The notes under the pieces are model-generated. The model saw only the letters and a list, made by a program, of their open reading frames with translations, was not told the origin of the DNA and searched no databases. Positions 22,298 to 43,468 of a DNA stretch of 64,000 nucleotides are shown piece after piece; position 1 is the stretch's first letter; each line of letters starts with the position of its first letter. A program made the position numbers and the translations under genes. The stretch is from Dictyostelium discoideum. Its lineage: Eukaryota. The stretch lies in contig CM000152.2 of the NCBI GenBank assembly GCA_000004695.1, positions 1,024,001 to 1,088,000 on the forward strand, read 5' to 3'.

Positions 22298-25200
22298 TTA
22301 TAATGGACAATCATTATTTTCTTGAAGTTTTTCAAATTGTTGAGGATTATTTAAATTTTGTTGTTGCTCTTGATCAAAACACATTAACATTGAAATAAAG
22401 GTTAAAATCATTTTAGGTTTAACTTCAACGAGATCTTCCCAAACTACAAATATACAACAACCTATCTTTCTAGCAACATTAATGATGTATTGAGCATTTA
22501 ATTTCTTTTCTTCAAAAGTTTCACCTTTGGTAATGATAGAATAGTTTACAACACTTTGAATTGAATCTAATAGATCAATCAAAAAGATACCATTACCAAT
22601 GGATTGATCTTTGAAACCAGTGATACAAGTTGATTTACCATGTTTTAAAACCTTTTTATTTGCCCATTGAATAATTTCACCTTCATTAAAGAATGAAGAA
22701 GTTGAGGAGGTGGAGGAAGAACTTAGAGATAAATCACCACTTGAGGAATCCTTCAATAATGATAGACGTAAATTTGTCAATAAAGATAATAAATGATATT
22801 TACAAGCTTGCCAAATCAAAGCCAAAGTTAATTTACGATTACCATCATGAATATCTTTACCACCAATACCAACGAGAGAGAAACGTAATTGTTTTGCAAT
22901 GGATATCCCATAGTTGCAATTCTCCAATGCCATATATGCATTTGAAGGTGAAATATTAACCTCTTTCCAATTGACAGAGCCAGATTTAATTTTATCAAAC
23001 ATTTGTAAAATGACTAAACCATCTTGAAGATCCTGTTGTAAATTATTAACATAGGGTTTAATGTTCAAAGAGTTCATCCACATACAGAAAGCACGTTCTT
23101 CTCTTGTACCTTCAACATCTAAATTTACTTTTTCAACCAAAGCACGTTGTTCTTCGATTACTTTAGTCGAAGATTCCGAAGCTTTTATACCAATACCTTT
23201 CTCTGATTTGAAAATACTTGAAAGGAATAGATAAATTAATTTTTGATTTCTATTTTGAATTGATTCTAAATTTAACCATTGGAATATATTAAAAGTTTGT
23301 TTAGATTGTTCAATGATCCATTTGAATTCATCAGATTCTTTTGATTGTTGGTCCACTGATGATTGTTGTAATAGAGCTGTACCACCATTTGCTGCCAAAT
23401 CTTTCTCTAGCGATATGAATAGTTTAATTAAATTCGAAGGTGACGAAGCCAATTGATCCAATGATAGTTTTGTTTTATCTAAAGCTAAATGATAAATGAA
23501 CCAACGTAACAATAGTTTATTAGTTGATTGAACGATGAAATGTTTCATATCTTCATGAGTTTCTTTTAAAACCAATAGAGTTGGATAAGTGTTTATATTG
23601 ATTGAAGATGTTATTTGAACTTTAACCAATTCATATAATAGATTAACCATTTCTTTTGGATCAGATTTTAGAGTTGTAGGTGAGATAGTTGATGGTATAA
23701 CACAACCGATTGCCTTTGCAGAATTGAAAACCAAATTTAAATTTTGATCGATTTCAATGTTACTAGTTGGTTCAATGTTTAAAACTCTTTCATCGATTGT
23801 ACCATCACGTGCAAAATTAACCAATTTACAAAGTAATACACCATCATAGAATGAATGAATGATATGTTTAGTTGAATCTATTGGGAAAACATGTTTAATA
23901 TGTTTATCTACCAAGAGTTGTTCAATCGTATTGACATAGTTAATCAATGGTTCTTCCTCTTCAATATAATAATCTTTTGATTGAGTTGGTTTAACTACTC
24001 TATTGATTTGTTCTTGAATTTGTCTCTTTTTCTCTTGTTCCAATTCCTCTTGTTTCTTTGCATCCATTTGCATTGATAGCTCTCTCTTTAATACTTGATG
24101 TTTTCTAGTTTTCTCTTCAACTTTAACTTGTAATGCTTGATTTTCACTCTTTAATTGAGTTAATTCAATTTGAATAGAATCAAATTCCTCTTTTTTATCT
24201 AATAACTCTACAATTAATAATTCAGATTTCTCTTTATCTTGTTGATGTTGTGTAGTTAACTCTTGAATTTGTAATTTCAATTGTTCAATAATTTGTTCAA
24301 ATTCAATAGTTTGTAATAATAATCTTTTAATCTCTAAACATTTCTCTTTATAATTTTCACCCATTCTATTAAATTTCAATTGATAACACTCTAATGAATT
24401 ATTAAATGAATCTAATAAATCATTGAATCTATCATTTAAACCATTTGAAAGTAATAATAAATTTGAATCACATTTACTATGAATATCAGTGATTGTTGAA
24501 AATTTCAATTGTAATTCTACTAAACTATCATTTAATTGATCAGTTTGAATTTGTTTATCTTGTAATAATTTATCTTTTTCTTGTAATAATTGTAATCTTT
24601 GTTGTGATTCTAATTCTAATTGATTAAATTGTGACATTAACTTTTCCAGTTCTTTATTTAATTGATCTTGAGTTAATTTAGAATTTGAAAGATCAAAACG
24701 AATAGTTTCAATCTCTTTTTTCAATTGAATTATGATTTGATCTTTTTCAACAATTGAACTTTCAAATTGTTCAACTTTATTAATTGAAGAAGATTCCAAT
24801 GATCTAATGATTGATAATTTCTCTTCGATTGAATCTAATTTCTCTTTGATGATTTTATCTTTATCGTTTGTAACCGATTGAAGCTCATTAATTGAAGTGG
24901 TTTGATTAGTAATGATCTCAACTTTCTCTTGAATAGTTTGGTCACGATCTTTAATCAATTGTTGTTTCTCTTTAATTAGGTCATCTTTTTCTCTAATCAA
25001 TTGATCTTTAGTGGAGGATGTATTCTCCAACTCTATGATATCATTGGATTGACGTTGAATCAATTCCGATTTCTCTTTTATCAATTGATCCTTTTCGATT
25101 ATCGATGATTCAAACTCTAATATCAATTGATCCTTTTCATGTAACTGCTTAGTTTTAACTTTAATTTCTAAATCTTTTTCAATTAATTGATTCTCTTTAA

Positions 25201-26117
25201 CCTCTAATAACTCTTGAATGGAATGAATTGATTCAACATGTTTACCAATGACAAAATCTTTCTCATTAATTGATTGTTGAATAGACTCAATGATTTTATC
25301 TTTTTCATTTGATTTAAATTCACCAACCAATACCAATTGGTCCAACTCTTCAATACGTGTTAAATATTCTTTAATTAACTCTAATCTATCTGATAATAAT
25401 GTTTCCAAATCAACGATTTTAACTTGAAATTCAGATTTAATTTCAAAGATTTCTTTATCCTTATCTTGAATACTCTTTTGTTGTTGAATTGAAAATGATT
25501 GTAACTGTTTCTCCATCTCTTCTTTAATTAATTTAATCTCTTCTTCATGTTTTTGTTGTTTAATTTCTTGATTTTCAAATATATTTGATTGTCTTAATTC
25601 ATCTGCTAAACTACCAATAATTGTACAATTATCATTTGTATTATTATTATTACTATTGTTATTGGTAGTAGTATTATCACTACCATTACCGCCATTAATT
25701 AATTGTTGTTGTAATTGTATATTCTCTAATTGTAATTGATCGATTTGATCCTGTAATATTCTATTATGAGATTGAATTGATGAGAAATTATCTTGAAATT
25801 CTTGATTTAATTTATTCAATTCTTTAATTTTCATTAAAAGTTTCTTCTTTTCTTCTTCTTCTTCACCACTCAATTCTTTAAATCTTTTATTTGAATCATA
25901 TTTTGTATATTTATTAATTGAAATTATACAAATTAACATATATAATGCTGATTTTGAATCACTATTTGTATTAATTGATTCAAATGAATCATTTAAACCT
26001 GATAAAATTGAATTATTATTATTATTATTACCGCTAAAATTTGATTCTTTATTCAATTTTTCTAATAAATATTTTTTGAATTATTCTTATTATTATTAAT
26101 ATTATTATTATTATAAA

Positions 26118-26157
<40 letters not shown>

Positions 26158-28275
26158 ATTATTAATATCTTGAATTGTGGAATATAAATTATTGGTATTA
26201 TTATTATTATTATTATTACTTGAATAATTTAAAGATATTGAATTTGAATCATTTTCTAAAAATGAAATTAAAGTTGAAATTAAAGAACAATCATCTAAAT
26301 TTATAATTTCAGATTCTAAACGTGATAATAAAGAACGTGCATCAGAGAGTACTCTAAGATTTGTAATTTTTGGAGTTGATGAAATTAATTCTTCATTTCT
26401 AATTAAATCATTATAAGCAGATTTTAAAATTAATTCAGGATTTTTAAGTGATCTTGATTCTGGTGATAATTGAGTTTGTTCAACTTGAATTTGAAGTTGT
26501 TTATTTTTTTGACGTAAAAGTTTGACTTTACTCTTTAATTTTTCAAATTCACTCTCATCGATTTTTGTATCCAATTGATACTTTAGATCATGTACACTCG
26601 TTTGTAATGACTCATTTGCATTCAATAGTCTATCACGATTTTTTATTAATCTACCCTGAGACGATTGCAATCCCTCCACTGCCAATTTCAATTCCTCAAT
26701 CTCCTCTTTCTGTTGTTTAATGGTTTTAGTTTTCATTGGACTATTGAAATCAATGATTGATTTTAATTTACTATTCTTTTCATCCAATTGATTTGATAAT
26801 TCAAATTCTTTGAAAACCAATATCTCATTCTCTTGCTTGGCCGTCGAGACTTGGTTAGAGAGGAACGCATTCTCGTTCTTTAATTTATCAACCTGTTCAT
26901 TGAAAAGTTTTAAACTCTCATTCAAAGCCTCTTGCTCTTGTAGACGTTGTTTCAATGCTTTCATCTCCTCTTCCAAATCTTCATTCTTTTCCAATAATGA
27001 TTGACCAATCTCTGCTGCAACTCTTGTATCTTTTTCTTTCTCTTCCAATAGTTTCTCAGTTTGTTCTAAAATTACCTTATGATCCAATTTAAACATCATA
27101 GTATAGGATTTATTCTTTTGAACATTTAAATTTTTAAATGGTGTAAAATTTTGGAATTCTCTTTTAATTGTACTACCATTATCAATACTACCATTGTTAT
27201 TGCTATTGTTGCTATTCTCAATTTGTTGTGATCTCCTTCTACCAACAATTGATGAAATTGATTTAGTTCTTCTATAATTTGATCTATCAAATCCTTCATC
27301 ATTTTCTTGTTGATTTAATGGTGTCATTGGTGGTGACATACCAGTTGATGATGAAAGTGGTGATCCATTATTATTCTTTGGTGTTGTTGTTGTTGTTGTT
27401 GTTATTGTTGTTGAATTATTAAAATATACAGTACCACCATTAAATTGATTTGATTGTGGTGTTTGTTGTGGGGTTTGTTCAGATGTATGTGATTGTGATG
27501 GCTGTGATTGTGATTGTGGTGGTTGTGGGGTTTGTGGTGTTTGATTCATATACAATTGTTGTTGAGCTGGTGTTAATTTTGTACTTTGTCTATTTGATTT
27601 TTTATTATTATTATTTGTAAATTCAGAAGGTGAAATATTTGAAGGTGGTGATAAACTACCTTGTGGTGAAAATGTTGTACTCTTTCTATGAGGTGATTTA
27701 TTATCTTGTTGCATATGTGAAACTAATTTACTATTTAATTTACCATATTTAAATAATGGTTGAAATTCTTTTTGATTTAATTTCCTCTTCAGTCTAAGAT
27801 AGGATGTCTCCTTTTGATAATGTTCAACTGTTAAATTCTTAATTTCTTCTGCTGTTAAATATTCATTCTCTTCCAATGATAATTCATTAACGAATGAATC
27901 ATATCTTTGATTTCTTTGATTTCTATATGTTTCAATATCTTTATAATATTCATTCATCCATTTTTTCAATATAATTGTATTATTATTATTATTATTATTA
28001 CTATCTATTTTTGATTTTACATTTTTACTATTATTATTAGTATTAGTATTAGTATTGGTATTGGTATTGGTATTGGTATCTTCATCTGATGAAGAGTCAC
28101 TTTCAATTTCATCATCATCAAAATTATCATCAAATATTGTTACACCTGTAAATAATGACATATCAATTTCTTTGACGGCTGTTTGATTGCTTAAATTTGA
28201 TTGATCCATCGCTGTTGTTGTTGTTGCTGATGACGATGTCGTAGTGTTACTAGTCGCCGTTTCTGTTGTCTCCAT
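22298..28275 (-). CDS. Giant coiled-coil protein with C-terminal fimbrin-type 4xCH actin-binding region, proposed 2 exons (26220..28275, 22298..26061) with an (AAT)n-rich intron 26062..26219
   Basis: ORF 26062..28275 has an S/T/N/Q-rich N terminus followed by coiled coil. ORF 22298..26056 is +2-shifted and overlaps it, and really begins at a TTG that the track rendered as M. It has about 700 aa of heptad-rich coiled coil, then four calponin-homology domains (..DGVLLCKLVNFARDG.., ..EERAFCMWMNSLNI..DGLVILQMFDKI.., ..LTLALIWQ.., ..IIQWANKKV..ILTFISMLM). Donor TCA A|GTAATA at 26219 and acceptor TTATTAG at 26062 join them in frame (phase 1) to about 1939 aa. The alternative is a real or sequencing frameshift near 26060. 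Confidence 0.5.
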
Positions 28276-34154: not shown

Positions 34155-35071
34155 TTAATCTGAAAAAGAACCATTACCATTTGTATTTGTTAAAGATTCT
34201 TTATCTTTAATACCAGATGAGCCAGTACTATTATTACCATTTTGAGAGATATTTAAGCTATTTGCTAATTTTGATTGTATATTTAAGTGTTGTTGAATAT
34301 CTTTATCTTTGATAGAGGTACAGAGTAAAGTGAAATCCAATTGTTCCTTAATGATGGCCATAGACATTTTATCGATCTCTTTGGAGAGAAAACCAAAGAT
34401 ATTATGTTTTAAACGAGAGTCAACCTTTAACAAGGCCTCATAGACATATTTTGAGGAGCAAGTTTCCTTATCGATCTTTTTGTAAATCTGTTCTAAAATC
34501 TCCAACAAACTAAAGACCACTTGAAAGTAGTCCAAATCCTTTGCAATACTAATATTGAAAATCTTTAGAAACTCATAGACCACGGTGGTACCAATCTTTA
34601 CGATCTTTGATTTGATATGCTCATTCTCATTGACAACGGTATGAGTTGGCTGTTTCTTTGAGAGTAGCACTTTTACACCTTGCATAGCAGAACCCAACTC
34701 AAAATGATAATCGTACTCTTCCATCAACTGAACCAATGAACGAATGTATGCAGGACCCTTATCAGTGGCTATCAATGGTGCCAAACTAAATCCCAAACAA
34801 AACCAACCCAACAATCTCTTTTGTATCTCTTGACTCTTTTCAAAATCTTGTCTTTGTATCATCGTTACATTCATCCAATGCATATTCTGTTGATTAGAGT
34901 ATGGATTTGGTTCAATATGCTGTCCTACCGCTACCATTGCTCCTGCTCCACTATATAATTTATTTAAATTGTTACTACTATTATTTAAACTTGATATTGA
35001 TGATACTGATGTTGATGTTGATAATCCACTTGTTGATGCTGTAATATTATTTGTTGATGTTGATGTTGTAA

Positions 35072-35102
<31 letters not shown>

Positions 35103-35582
35103 ATTATTATTATTATTATTATTTGTTGTTGTTGATGATACATTTGTTCCGCTACTATTATTATTATTATTATTATTGCCATTTATATTTAATTTATTAT
35201 TTATATTACTATTATTACTATTATTACTATTATTACCCTGTGCCGTTATATTATTACTATTATTATTATTATTATTACCACTATTCCCATTACTCCCATT
35301 ATTATTTATATTATTTATATTATTATTATTTATATTATTTATATTATTATTATTGTTGTTGTTTGTTGTAGATGTTGTAGTTGTTGTAGTTGTAGTAGTA
35401 ATAGTATCATTTAATGATAATGATGATATTGAAGGTGTATTTGAAAAACCACTATTTACATAATATGCTGCTTCATGTATCCTTCTTATATAATCTATTA
35501 CCATTGTTCTTTTTTCGACAATGTTTGTTATTGATTTTTTTCTTTCGAGAGTTTCCTCCATTTTTGTTACAATCGCGTCCAT
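34155..35582 (-). CDS. Hypothetical protein with a long poly-N/T insert, single exon (475 aa)
   Basis: Continuous ORF with ordered N- and C-terminal parts (MDAIVTKMEETLERKK.., ..LLGWFCLGFSLAPLIATDKGPAYIRSLVQLMEEYDYHFELGSAMQG..) around a low-complexity region. No family recognised. Confidence 0.55.
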
Positions 35583-40242: not shown

Positions 40243-40542
40243 ACACGAAACCACACACAAAAAAAAAAAAAAAAAAAAAACAAAAAAAAAACAAAAAAAA
40301 CTAATTTATAAAATGGATAAATAGGTAAAGAAATTACTATGCCAGCATTATCACCAAGTATGACTGAAGGTAATATTGTTCAATGGAAAAAGAAAGAAGG
40401 TGACCAAATTAAAGCAGGTGATGTCATTGCAGAAGTTGAAACTGATAAAGCAACTATGGATTTCCAATATGAAGATGGTAATGGTTATTTAGCTAAAATT
40501 TTAATCCCAGAAGGTACTAAAGGAATTGAAATTAATAAAGTA

Positions 40543-40602
<60 letters not shown>

Positions 40603-42276
40603 TATAAGCACAACATTGCAATGATATTAACCTACCACCAACCCCATTCATATCTTTATATATTATAAAATATTATATTTTTAATATATATATTTTTTTT
40701 TTTATATTTTATAGCCAATTGCAATCATTGTATCAAAGAAAGAAGATATTGAGTCAGCAGTTAAAAATTATAAACCAAGTTCACAAGCTTCATCAACTCC
40801 AGTTCAAGAAGAAGCACCAAAACCAAAACAAGAAGCACCAAAAAAATCAACTAAAACTTGTAAATAATTCATCATACATTTCTATCATATATATTTATAT
40901 GCATTTTGATAATACATTAAATTGATTTGATATTTTTGTTAACATTTCATTTTTTTTTTATATTTTTATTTTTAGACCCAGCTCATAAAGTTGTAGGTAT
41001 GCCAGCATTATCACCAAGTATGGAAACTGGTGGTATTGCATCATGGACAAAGAAAGAAGGTGATCAAATTAAAGCAGGTGATGCAATTGCTGAAGTTGAA
41101 ACTGATAAAGCAACTATGGATTTCCAATATGAAGATGGTAATGGTTATTTAGCAAAGATTTTAGTTCCAGGTGGTACATCTGGTATTCAAATTAATCAAC
41201 CAGTTTGTATTATAGTAAAGAACAAAGAAGATTGTGATAAATTTGCTGATTATTCAGTTGAAGAACAATCATCATCATCATCATCATCATCACAAGAATC
41301 AACTCCATCATCATCATCATCATCATCACAAGAATCAACACCATCACAATCATCATCACAACAAACTACACGTAAATCTGGTGAAAGAATTTTCGCTACA
41401 CCAGCAGCAAGATTTGAGGCATCATCAAAAGGATATGATCTTTCAGCAATCAATGGTACTGGTCCAAATAATAGAATTCTTAAAGCTGATGTTTTAGAAT
41501 TTGTACCACAAAAACAAGAAGTTGCTCAACAACAACAACAACAAACTACTACCACCACTAAAAAACCAACTACACCAACTTCATCAGGTGAATTCACTGA
41601 TATTCCACATAGTAATATTCGTAAGGTTACTGCAGCTCGTCTTACAGAATCAAAACAAACCATTCCACATTATTATCTCACAATGGAATGTCGTGTTGAT
41701 AAACTCTTAAAACTTCGTTCAGAATTGAATGCAATGAACACTGTTAAAATCTCTGTCAATGATTTCATTGTTAAAGCATCCGCTGCCGCCCTTCGTGATA
41801 ATCCAGTCGTAAATTCAACATGGACCGATCAATTCATTAGAAGATATCACAACATTGATATCAACGTTGCCGTCAATACACCACAAGGTTTATTCACTCC
41901 AATCGTTAGAGGTGTCGATATGAAAGGTCTCAACTCTATCTCAACCTCTGTTAAACAATTGGCTGAAAAAGCTCAAAATGGTAAATTACACCCATCCGAA
42001 TTTGAAAGTGGTACTTTCACTATCTCTAACTTGGGTATGCTCGGTATTAAACAATTCGCAGCAGTCATCAATCCACCACAAGCTGCTATCTTGGCCGTTG
42101 GTACCACAGAAACTCGTGTCGTTTTAAGCAATAAACCAGACTCACCATATGAAACCGCTACCATTTTATCCGTTACCTTAAGTTGTGATCATCGTGTTAT
42201 CGATGGTGCTGTAGGTGCTGAATGGTTAAAGAGCTTCAAAGATTATGTTGAAAATCCAATCAAATTAATCTTATAA
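39899..42276 (+). CDS. pdhC: Pyruvate dehydrogenase complex E2 (dihydrolipoyllysine-residue acetyltransferase), mitochondrial, 4 exons (39899..40145, 40325..40539, 40715..40859, 40976..42276)
   Basis: Mitochondrial presequence [19 protein letters not shown].. and two lipoyl domains ([43 protein letters not shown].. and [42 protein letters not shown]..). E3-binding domain [36 protein letters not shown]. Catalytic 2-oxoacid acyltransferase domain with DHRVIDGA. Donors are GTAGGT, GTAATG and GTAAAT; acceptors ATAG, TATAG and TTTAG, with phases consistent. About 635 aa. Confidence 0.8.
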
Positions 42277-42864: not shown

Positions 42865-43006
42865 TTCAATTATTAAAATTGGCTGCATCAATTACAAAAT
42901 ATGGTTCATTTCTACCAGGAATGGTGAAATTAAAACCTGAGGAACTATTTATTTTAAAAATTTATTTGTAAGTAATGGTTTTTATTATTTTTTATTTTTT
43001 TATTAC

Positions 43007-43086
<80 letters not shown>

Positions 43087-43468
43087 TAAAATAAACTTAC
43101 CTGTTTTTTTCAATTTTTGGGAATTGTACATAAGTTGCTTTAGGATTTAACAAGTCTGGGATATCTGACGATATATCAAAAGCTTGGCCAATAGCTTTTG
43201 GATCAAAACCCATGTGGATATCTGTGGCAGTAGAATCCCCGTTGTTATGAACTTGAACTCCATATCTAGAAAAATGAGTTACACCCACATCCCATTCAGA
43301 TTGTTTGGTAGTTTCCACTGTCACTGCATTGAAATCAGAGGCTTTAACACACTTACATGAACCGTTTGATGTAACACTAACTTCCTTAGCACCACATGGA
43401 CTATTTTTACAACCATAAGCAAAAACAAAAGTGAAGATAAAAATACAAAGGACTGCCAAGAATTTCAT
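42865..43468 (-). CDS. Small secreted CBM49-like protein family member S1, 2 exons (43101..43468, 42865..42943), about 149 aa
   Basis: Signal peptide MKFLAVLCIFIFTFVFAYG and Cys-rich CKNSPCGAKEVSVTSNGSCKCV. Then SEWDVGVTHFSRYGVQVHNNG..KATYVQFPKIEKN, donor AAC AG|GTAAGT, and an intron packed with (AAT)n. Exon 2 reads SSGFNFTIPGRNEPYFVIDAANFNN*. Confidence 0.65.

Follow-up and report, generated by a model that had tools for sequence, protein, structure and literature searches.

One missing adenine, probably a reference error, accounts for the broken reading frame of a long four-CH-domain gene in Dictyostelium discoideum

Results and Discussion

Two long overlapping open reading frames on the minus strand of Dictyostelium discoideum chromosome 3 most probably belong to one intronless gene encoding a protein of about 1992 aa. 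The break between them can be put down to a single missing A, which is best explained as a base-calling or assembly error in the reference sequence (estimated probability around 80%). The A is present in two other genomes, in both of which the reading frame is continuous at this position, and protein homology extends across the segment that had been taken for an intron. The analysed sequence, referred to here as the window, comprises 64,000 nucleotides (contig CM000152.2, positions 1,024,001 to 1,088,000), and the features discussed are collected in Table 1.

Reading frames in the window

The upstream frame, ORF1 (26062..28275(-), 737 aa), begins with the ATG at 28275-28273 and ends with the stop at 26064-26062. 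The downstream frame, ORF2 (22298..26056(-), 1252 aa), is listed from a TTG, a mechanical choice that does not represent a real start. A previous sequence-only reading had described the two frames as overlapping in different registers, with a TTG as the apparent start of the second, and both points were confirmed by the ORF list. The open frames share about 18 nt, that of ORF2 being open from about 26079.

The same reading had joined both frames by a 158-nt intron on the minus strand, with a GTAATA donor following TCA A (G at 26219) and an acceptor TTATTAG closing at 26062. The 158 nt do begin with GT (26219-26218) and end with AG (26063-26062), have a G+C content of 7% and consist for the most part of AAT repeats. 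Upon removal of 26219..26062 a single ORF of about the predicted length, 1939 aa, was indeed obtained, in which ...SLNYS is joined to KKLNKES....

A different mechanism is suggested by the comparisons described below. One A is absent at 26070/26071, where the (AAT)n tract that codes for a poly-Asn linker has its 3' end, and its absence shifts the frame and creates the TAG stop at 26064-26062. On this reading, Ser-Asn codons (AGT AAT) supply the GT at 26219 and Leu-Glu codons (TTA GAA) the AG at 26062, both resembling splice sites by chance.

Table 1. Features of the D. discoideum gene in the window and of the intron conserved in distant orthologues
Feature	Position	Strand	Basis or remark
5' part of the coding sequence: low-complexity N terminus and first coiled-coil block	26220..28275	-	ORF list, translation, collinear with D. 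firmibasis orthologue
HAP1_N-like motif EKDTRVAAEIGQSLLEKNEDLEEE..., ORF1 residues 407-447	26935..27057	-	Pfam PF04849
Alleged intron, read here as coding poly-Asn linker (SNNNNNNNTNNLYSTIQDINNYNNN...NSKN), ORF1 frame to 26071	26062..26219	-	
Frameshift site, one A absent beside 26070	26069..26071	-	DNA alignments
Three single-base differences from GCA_054883475.1	26117..26195	-	DNA alignment
3' part of the coding sequence, ORF2 frame, TTA 26068-26066 to stop 22300-22298	22298..26068	-	translation
ATG starting the AX4 model XP_642432.1	25937..25939	-	exact look-up
Fimbrin-type core with four CH domains arranged as two actin-binding domains in tandem	22376..23959	-	1pxy/1rt8 match, PF00307
Conserved intron, D. 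purpureum	L005 8077-8165		GTATGT donor
Conserved intron, P. violaceum	L003 2442-2524		GTATGT donor
Conserved intron, A. subglobosum	L004 2373-2448		GTATGT donor

The reading frame in a second D. discoideum assembly

The D. discoideum assembly GCA_054883475.1 has the start of the gene at L002 17270, the position that matches window 28275, and an annotated product of 1992 aa. This equals 1939 + 53, the length expected from straight read-through of 158 + 1 nt. The 4138 nt of the gene that were compared, all but the last ~613 codons, make up a single open frame of 1379 codons that passes through the junction. This copy is a full-length, intronless version of the window gene, and it carries the A that is absent at 26070/26071. 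The earlier figure of about 1940 aa for the product falls short accordingly by the read-through segment; with the single missing A supplied, the full length would be about 1992 aa.

Both in the 372 nt aligned at the junction and in 4.1 kb of the gene, the assembly differed from the window by one extra A at 26070/26071 and three substitutions, and by nothing else. At the frameshift site the window reads AAAAAAT-ATTTATTAG and the assembly AAAAAATAATTTATTAG; in codons, AAT-A-T TTA TTA GAA in the window stands against AAT AAT TTA TT(A/G) GAA in GCA_054883475.1 and D. firmibasis. The substitutions (window/assembly) are C/A at 26195 (Thr/Asn), C/A at 26179 (Ser, synonymous) and T/A at 26117 (Ile/Asn). 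At 26179 and 26117 the base of D. firmibasis is that of GCA_054883475.1.

Over 21.4 kb, 23 differences between the window and the second assembly were counted. Nineteen are located in or beside A/T runs outside the long ORFs and mostly concern run length. The remaining four, the sole ones inside a long ORF, all fall in 26071-26195, within 125 nt of a low-complexity tract. Since the missing A sits together with three substitutions in 125 nt, while the rest of the 21 kb differs only at A/T runs, a base-calling or assembly error is inferred to be the likeliest origin of the gap, ahead of a true mutation. The possibility that the (AAT)n region contains a sequencing error had been named earlier as an alternative to splicing; with the A present in two other genomes, it is the account that best fits the evidence.

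It is improbable, though by no means negligible, that the sequenced strain truly lacks this base, through a deletion in the AX3/AX4 lineage or as a natural polymorphism, and that the gene is broken there. Such a strain would make a 737-aa N-terminal fragment ending at the stop 26064-26062, and the fimbrin-like part, if produced, would come from an internal start, e.g. the ATG at 25939. The shift in the reference is seen both in the window and in the gene model of AX4, and repeat tracts are prone to slippage. Slippage of (AAT)n, however, alters whole units, whereas the lost base belongs to AATAATTTA, outside the pure repeat. The cluster of three more substitutions in 125 nt, with no other long-ORF substitution in 21.4 kb, looks like poor base calls. 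Moreover, neither the 737-aa nor the 1213-aa product is encoded in any other assembly on record, AX4 itself being apparently outside that index. The site in AX4 would read AATAATTTATTAG in the case of a reference error and AATATTTATTAG in the case of a real frameshift. The four differences could be natural polymorphism if the strain of GCA_054883475.1 is not an NC4-derived laboratory strain. A Nanopore plus Illumina assembly of AX2-214 was reported in 2025 (PMC12745789), which may or may not be GCA_054883475.1.

Programmed ribosomal frameshifting was also considered as a cause of the break and was dropped, the two other genomes simply carrying the extra base.

The D. firmibasis orthologue

The D. 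firmibasis protein RB653_004525 (1977 aa) was found to be 81% identical over 100% of the query. Its gene (L001 3001-8934) occupies exactly 5934 nt and constitutes one uninterrupted ORF, and because the span is exactly 5934 nt the gene is intronless. The protein starts with METTETA and ORF1 is collinear with it. The annotation of D. firmibasis was derived from mRNA-seq transcripts with manual checking (PMC11193728), in a species other than that of the window.

The orthologue aligns across the alleged intron, including LISAIQDIS and NSKNNLLEKLSKES. In this segment D. discoideum LNYSSNNNNNNNNNNLYSTIQDINNY...NSKNNLLEKLNKES corresponds to LNYTS-NFNNNNSNQLISAIQDISGN...NSKNNLLEKLSKES in D. firmibasis. 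Compared with GCA_054883475.1, the D. firmibasis segment shows only whole-codon indels (of 1 and 4 codons), and both L(Y/I)S(T/A)IQDI and NSKNNLLEKL are kept between the two. From LLEKLNKES onward the window matches the D. firmibasis sequence starting at LLEKLSKES. The frame break thus falls between NSKN, which is read in the ORF1 frame, and LLEKL, which is read in the ORF2 frame, so that one base accounts for it. The D. firmibasis DNA reads AAT AAT TTA TTG GAA at this point, with the extra A. The gene is a full-length intronless form of the same gene and has the A that is absent from the window at 26070/26071.

An intron is expected to be non-coding and to be untranslated in close relatives. 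The segment 26219..26062 is translated in D. firmibasis as well as in GCA_054883475.1. In addition, D. firmibasis has no AG at the alleged acceptor, as its codons at this point are TTG GAA instead of the TTA GAA of the window.

Distant orthologues and a conserved intron

In D. purpureum, P. violaceum and A. subglobosum both conserved blocks were found in one gene, joined by a linker of variable length. The conserved part of ORF1 ends with a DCSLISTL...FL(E/D) block, while ORF2 opens with an LN(D/E)SFES...SALYMLICIISINKYTKYD block, and the length of the linker between them varies widely among species. Since D. purpureum translates NNLLDLLK in a continuous ORF, the motif NNLL(E/D)xL that spans the alleged acceptor is conserved.

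No intron was detected at the position of 26219..26062 in the orthologues of D. purpureum, P. violaceum and A. subglobosum, and the position is accordingly not one common to the orthologues. These three species have an intron about 40 codons downstream of the alleged site, in phase 0 between SALY(M/L) and LIC (SALYM^LICI), which is absent in D. discoideum and D. firmibasis. The annotation of D. purpureum contains two genes that are split at this conserved intron (695 aa, labelled 'partial', and 1187 aa).

Splice-site likeness and chance

Read in the ORF1 frame, the 26219..26062 segment runs through 52 codons before it meets a stop, and that stop supplies the alleged acceptor. Among comparable non-coding stretches of the window (156 nt, G+C ≤10%) 3.6% are open in a given frame, and shuffled versions of the segment were open in 25 of 20,000 cases. 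The two introns inferred in neighbouring genes have three in-frame stops each. One of them, of 156 nt, also contains a long ATA/AAT repeat, so such a repeat is not diagnostic.

When one-base deletions were simulated in the long ORFs of the window, 97% (n = 1350) could be bridged by some GT..AG pair enclosing 50-300 nt. Just behind other coding tracts of very high A+T content, 49% of 146 positions, which are clustered and not independent, were bridged by a segment with G+C ≤10%, and the donor GTAATA, originating from AGT AAT (Ser-Asn) codons, was again frequent. A frame-restoring GT..AG pair is hence expected by chance after a one-base deletion and does not constitute evidence for an intron. 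The GTAATA donor lacks a G at +5, which is present in all five introns read here, a small sample (GTAAGT and GTACGT in neighbouring genes, GTATGT in the three orthologues). No usable paper on the splice-site consensus of Dictyostelium was found in the literature search. Other frame-restoring GT..AG pairs, 46 within about ±450 nt, were discarded because they would cut conserved sequence or have poor sites.

Taken at face value, 26219..26062 would be a genuine spliceosomal intron in the gene of a 1939-aa protein, and it could represent a recent intronisation compensating the frameshift. Its GT..AG ends, length of 158 nt and 7% G+C are typical for Dictyostelium introns, its removal restores the frame, it is the sole short frame-restoring pair that spares conserved sequence, and the neighbouring inferred intron of 156 nt has a long ATA/AAT repeat as well. 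Against this, D. firmibasis and GCA_054883475.1 have the segment as coding sequence, it is open over 52 codons in frame, the donor is without the +5 G of the few introns read, and the acceptor AG belongs to a stop made by the frameshift and is missing in D. firmibasis. Such pairs also arise readily by chance, and the protein collection has no entry for the 1939-aa product. The proposed intron is therefore very unlikely, and homology of the segment to translated sequence leaves the proposal unsupported.

In GCA_054883475.1 the same GT..AG pair spans 159 nt, a multiple of three, so that removal would be in frame there too. This would be compatible with an exitron, i.e. a segment optionally removed from the intact allele, which would give two hypothetical isoforms differing by 53 residues in the poly-Asn linker, whose length differs greatly among species. 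The donor is weak, however, D. firmibasis does not share the acceptor and poly-Asn tracts yield GT..AG pairs by chance, which makes an exitron hardly credible. Taken together, an exitron in the intact allele or a real frameshift of the AX4 lineage rescued by cryptic GT..AG splicing of the poly-Asn tract has a very low probability. The latter, if true, would mean that coding sequence had turned into an intron only very recently, in a laboratory strain.

With a missing base as the preferred explanation, the locus illustrates two cautions for AT-rich genomes: coding (AAT)n tracts for poly-Asn resemble introns, and a plausible GT..AG pair can be found to 'repair' nearly every error of a single base.

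The AX4 gene model

The window corresponds to D. discoideum chromosome 3 and agrees with the AX4 annotation; for instance, its ORF 34158-35582(-) is identical to AX4 XP_642436.1 (DDB_G0278705). Residue for residue, 25939..22301(-) equals the AX4 protein XP_642432.1 / EAL68445.1 / UniProt Q54XX0, an 'actin binding protein' of 1213 aa. AX4 thus has the downstream ORF annotated as a gene of its own that starts at the first ATG past the frame break. The shift caused by the missing base explains why only the last 1213 aa are annotated.

XP_642432.1 covers the C-terminal 61% of the full-length protein. It uses an internal Met as start, and the first ~779 residues, the HAP1_N-like motif among them, are absent from it. 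In the full-length protein the ATG at 25939 encodes this internal Met, which in the other dictyostelids is the last codon ahead of the conserved intron. The entry XP_642432.1 (1213 aa) would consequently need correction as a truncated piece of a protein of about 1992 aa. The missing ~779 N-terminal residues hold the sole motif of the HAP1/TRAK motor-adaptor-like type, and knockouts, tagging or expression designed on the reference model would be work with a fragment. The finding is an ordinary one with little that is new, as the newer D. discoideum assembly already annotates the 1992-aa product.

Neither the 1939-aa product nor the 737-aa ORF1 had an exact match in the protein collection, and the same was true for the 1992-aa reconstruction. 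In the last case the 3' part of the other assembly may differ beyond the codons read, or the product may lie outside the collection. The search for homologous proteins returned no D. discoideum protein although the collection contains at least three (P0006, P0007, P0008), and the search with the CH core missed close orthologues that an earlier search had recovered; absences from these homologue searches are for that reason uninformative. Q54XX0 was mentioned in no paper found by the literature search.

Domain architecture of the full-length protein

In the predicted full-length protein, the N terminus would be of low complexity and include a HAP1_N/TRAK-like motif, some 900 aa would be coiled-coil-like, and a fimbrin-type core of four CH domains would lie at the C terminus. 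Residues ~400-1300 are rich in E, K, Q and L and poor in P and G, and show a raised 3.5-residue hydrophobic periodicity, as judged by a crude test. Four CH stretches were recognised in the C-terminal 600 aa (PF00307, E 3e-43). The core matches residues 8-502 of 506 of 1pxy_A as one continuous alignment (E 3e-86) and residues 12-512 of 513 of 1rt8_A (E 2e-75), in agreement with the fimbrin arrangement of two tandem actin-binding domains with two CH domains each. Identity to canonical fimbrins was 33-38% over ~90% of the 600-aa query. The proposal made from the sequence, of one gene whose product joins a low-complexity N-terminal part and a long middle resembling a coiled coil to a fimbrin-type four-CH core at the C terminus, is supported.

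The four-CH core is common to this protein and to canonical fimbrin/plastin (1pxy from Arabidopsis, 1rt8 from S. pombe, 7r94 plastin-3), end to end in the cases of 1pxy and 1rt8. The canonical proteins have an EF-hand headpiece, in contrast to the ~1400 low-complexity and coiled-coil-like residues that occupy its place here. No EF-hand family was found anywhere in the protein, even at E ≤ 1, and the fimbrin headpiece is accordingly lacking; PF13499/PF00036 are carried by many of the canonical fimbrins retrieved, plant ones excepted. The core is indeed C-terminal, as had been noted. To call this placement atypical was an overstatement, as the core of ordinary fimbrins likewise lies C-terminal to the headpiece. 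By homology, the full-length protein is likely to dimerise by way of its coiled coil and to bind, cross-link or bundle F-actin with the fimbrin core.

ORF1 residues 407-447 matched PF04849 with an E value of 1.7e-7 and 31.2 bits, under the gathering score of 33.9, and the match spans profile positions 70-110 of 307 (~40 positions). The match is short and lies in the conserved portion of HAP1_N, the N-terminal region of HAP1/TRAK/Milton proteins; in contrast to these, the score is sub-threshold here and the Milt/TRAK domain is absent. The orthologues of A. subglobosum and D. purpureum are assigned to the same family in precomputed listings, where they are flagged as weak. The stretch AAEIGQSLLEKN is similar to the 'CC1 box' (AAxxG) known from dynein adaptors. 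When solved structures were searched with the HAP1_N-like/coiled-coil block, only generic coiled coils and no specific relative were retrieved. Motor-adaptor-like interactions may possibly be tied to the protein. Long fimbrin-like proteins with four CH domains, fimC and fimD, have already been listed for D. discoideum, and the two were reported as the best matches in the Dictyostelium proteome to TRAK1 and Milton (PMC5064798).

Conserved intron and gene models

The orthologues of the fimbrin-like gene in D. purpureum, P. violaceum and A. subglobosum share an intron in phase 0 that separates SALY(M/L) from LIC, with GTATGT as the donor in all three species. This intron is missing from the fimbrin-like genes of D. 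discoideum and D. firmibasis, suggesting that it was lost in the D. discoideum/D. firmibasis lineage. The start codon of the 1213-aa AX4 model (XP_642432.1) is the Met directly preceding the position of this intron. The D. purpureum gene is likewise broken into two models in its annotation, and the break falls at the conserved intron rather than at a frameshift.

Location of the introns and gene models
Feature	Species	Location
SALY(M/L)^LIC intron	D. purpureum	L005 8077-8165
SALY(M/L)^LIC intron	P. violaceum	L003 2442-2524
SALY(M/L)^LIC intron	A. subglobosum	L004 2373-2448
Site corresponding to the SALY(M/L)^LIC intron	D. discoideum	window 25936-25939
DICPUDRAFT_32303 'partial' (695 aa) and CH-domain protein (1187 aa)	D. 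purpureum	L005 6001-8088 and 8166-11808
Inferred 156-nt intron of the 148-aa gene	D. discoideum	L002 2491-2647, about window 42950-43100
L002, L003, L004 and L005: loci of GCA_054883475.1 and of the three orthologues.

Outside the present AX4 model lies EKDTRVAAEIGQSLLEKNEDLEEE (window 26935-27057, minus strand), a sub-threshold match to HAP1_N (PF04849). It resembles the 'CC1 box' (AAxxG) found in adaptors that activate dynein (TRAK, BICD, Spindly), a likeness which would hint at a fusion of the fimbrin core to a motor-adaptor-like module.

Repeats and assembly differences

The model of a neighbouring 148-aa gene contains an inferred intron (GTAAGT...AATAG, 5% G+C) with a long ATA/AAT repeat inside, which in the exon frame reads as Ile, stops included. 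AAT-type repeats thus do occur in real Dictyostelium introns.

Window 24139-45592 was compared with L002 over 21.4 kb. Besides the four differences at 26071-26195, 19 others separate the two, all in or beside intergenic or intronic A/T runs; most are run-length changes of at most 12 bases.

DDB_G0278705 (34155-35582, minus strand) is annotated as 475 aa in AX4 and 468 aa in GCA_054883475.1. Since the DNA of both assemblies is identical there, the discrepancy must lie in the gene models, probably through a different choice of start.

Two 200-nt segments (40338-40536 and 40998-41196) showed 86% identity. Both lie inside a gene encoding two Biotin_lipoyl domains, E3_binding and 2-oxoacid_dh, and the pair is consistent with a tandem lipoyl-domain duplication.
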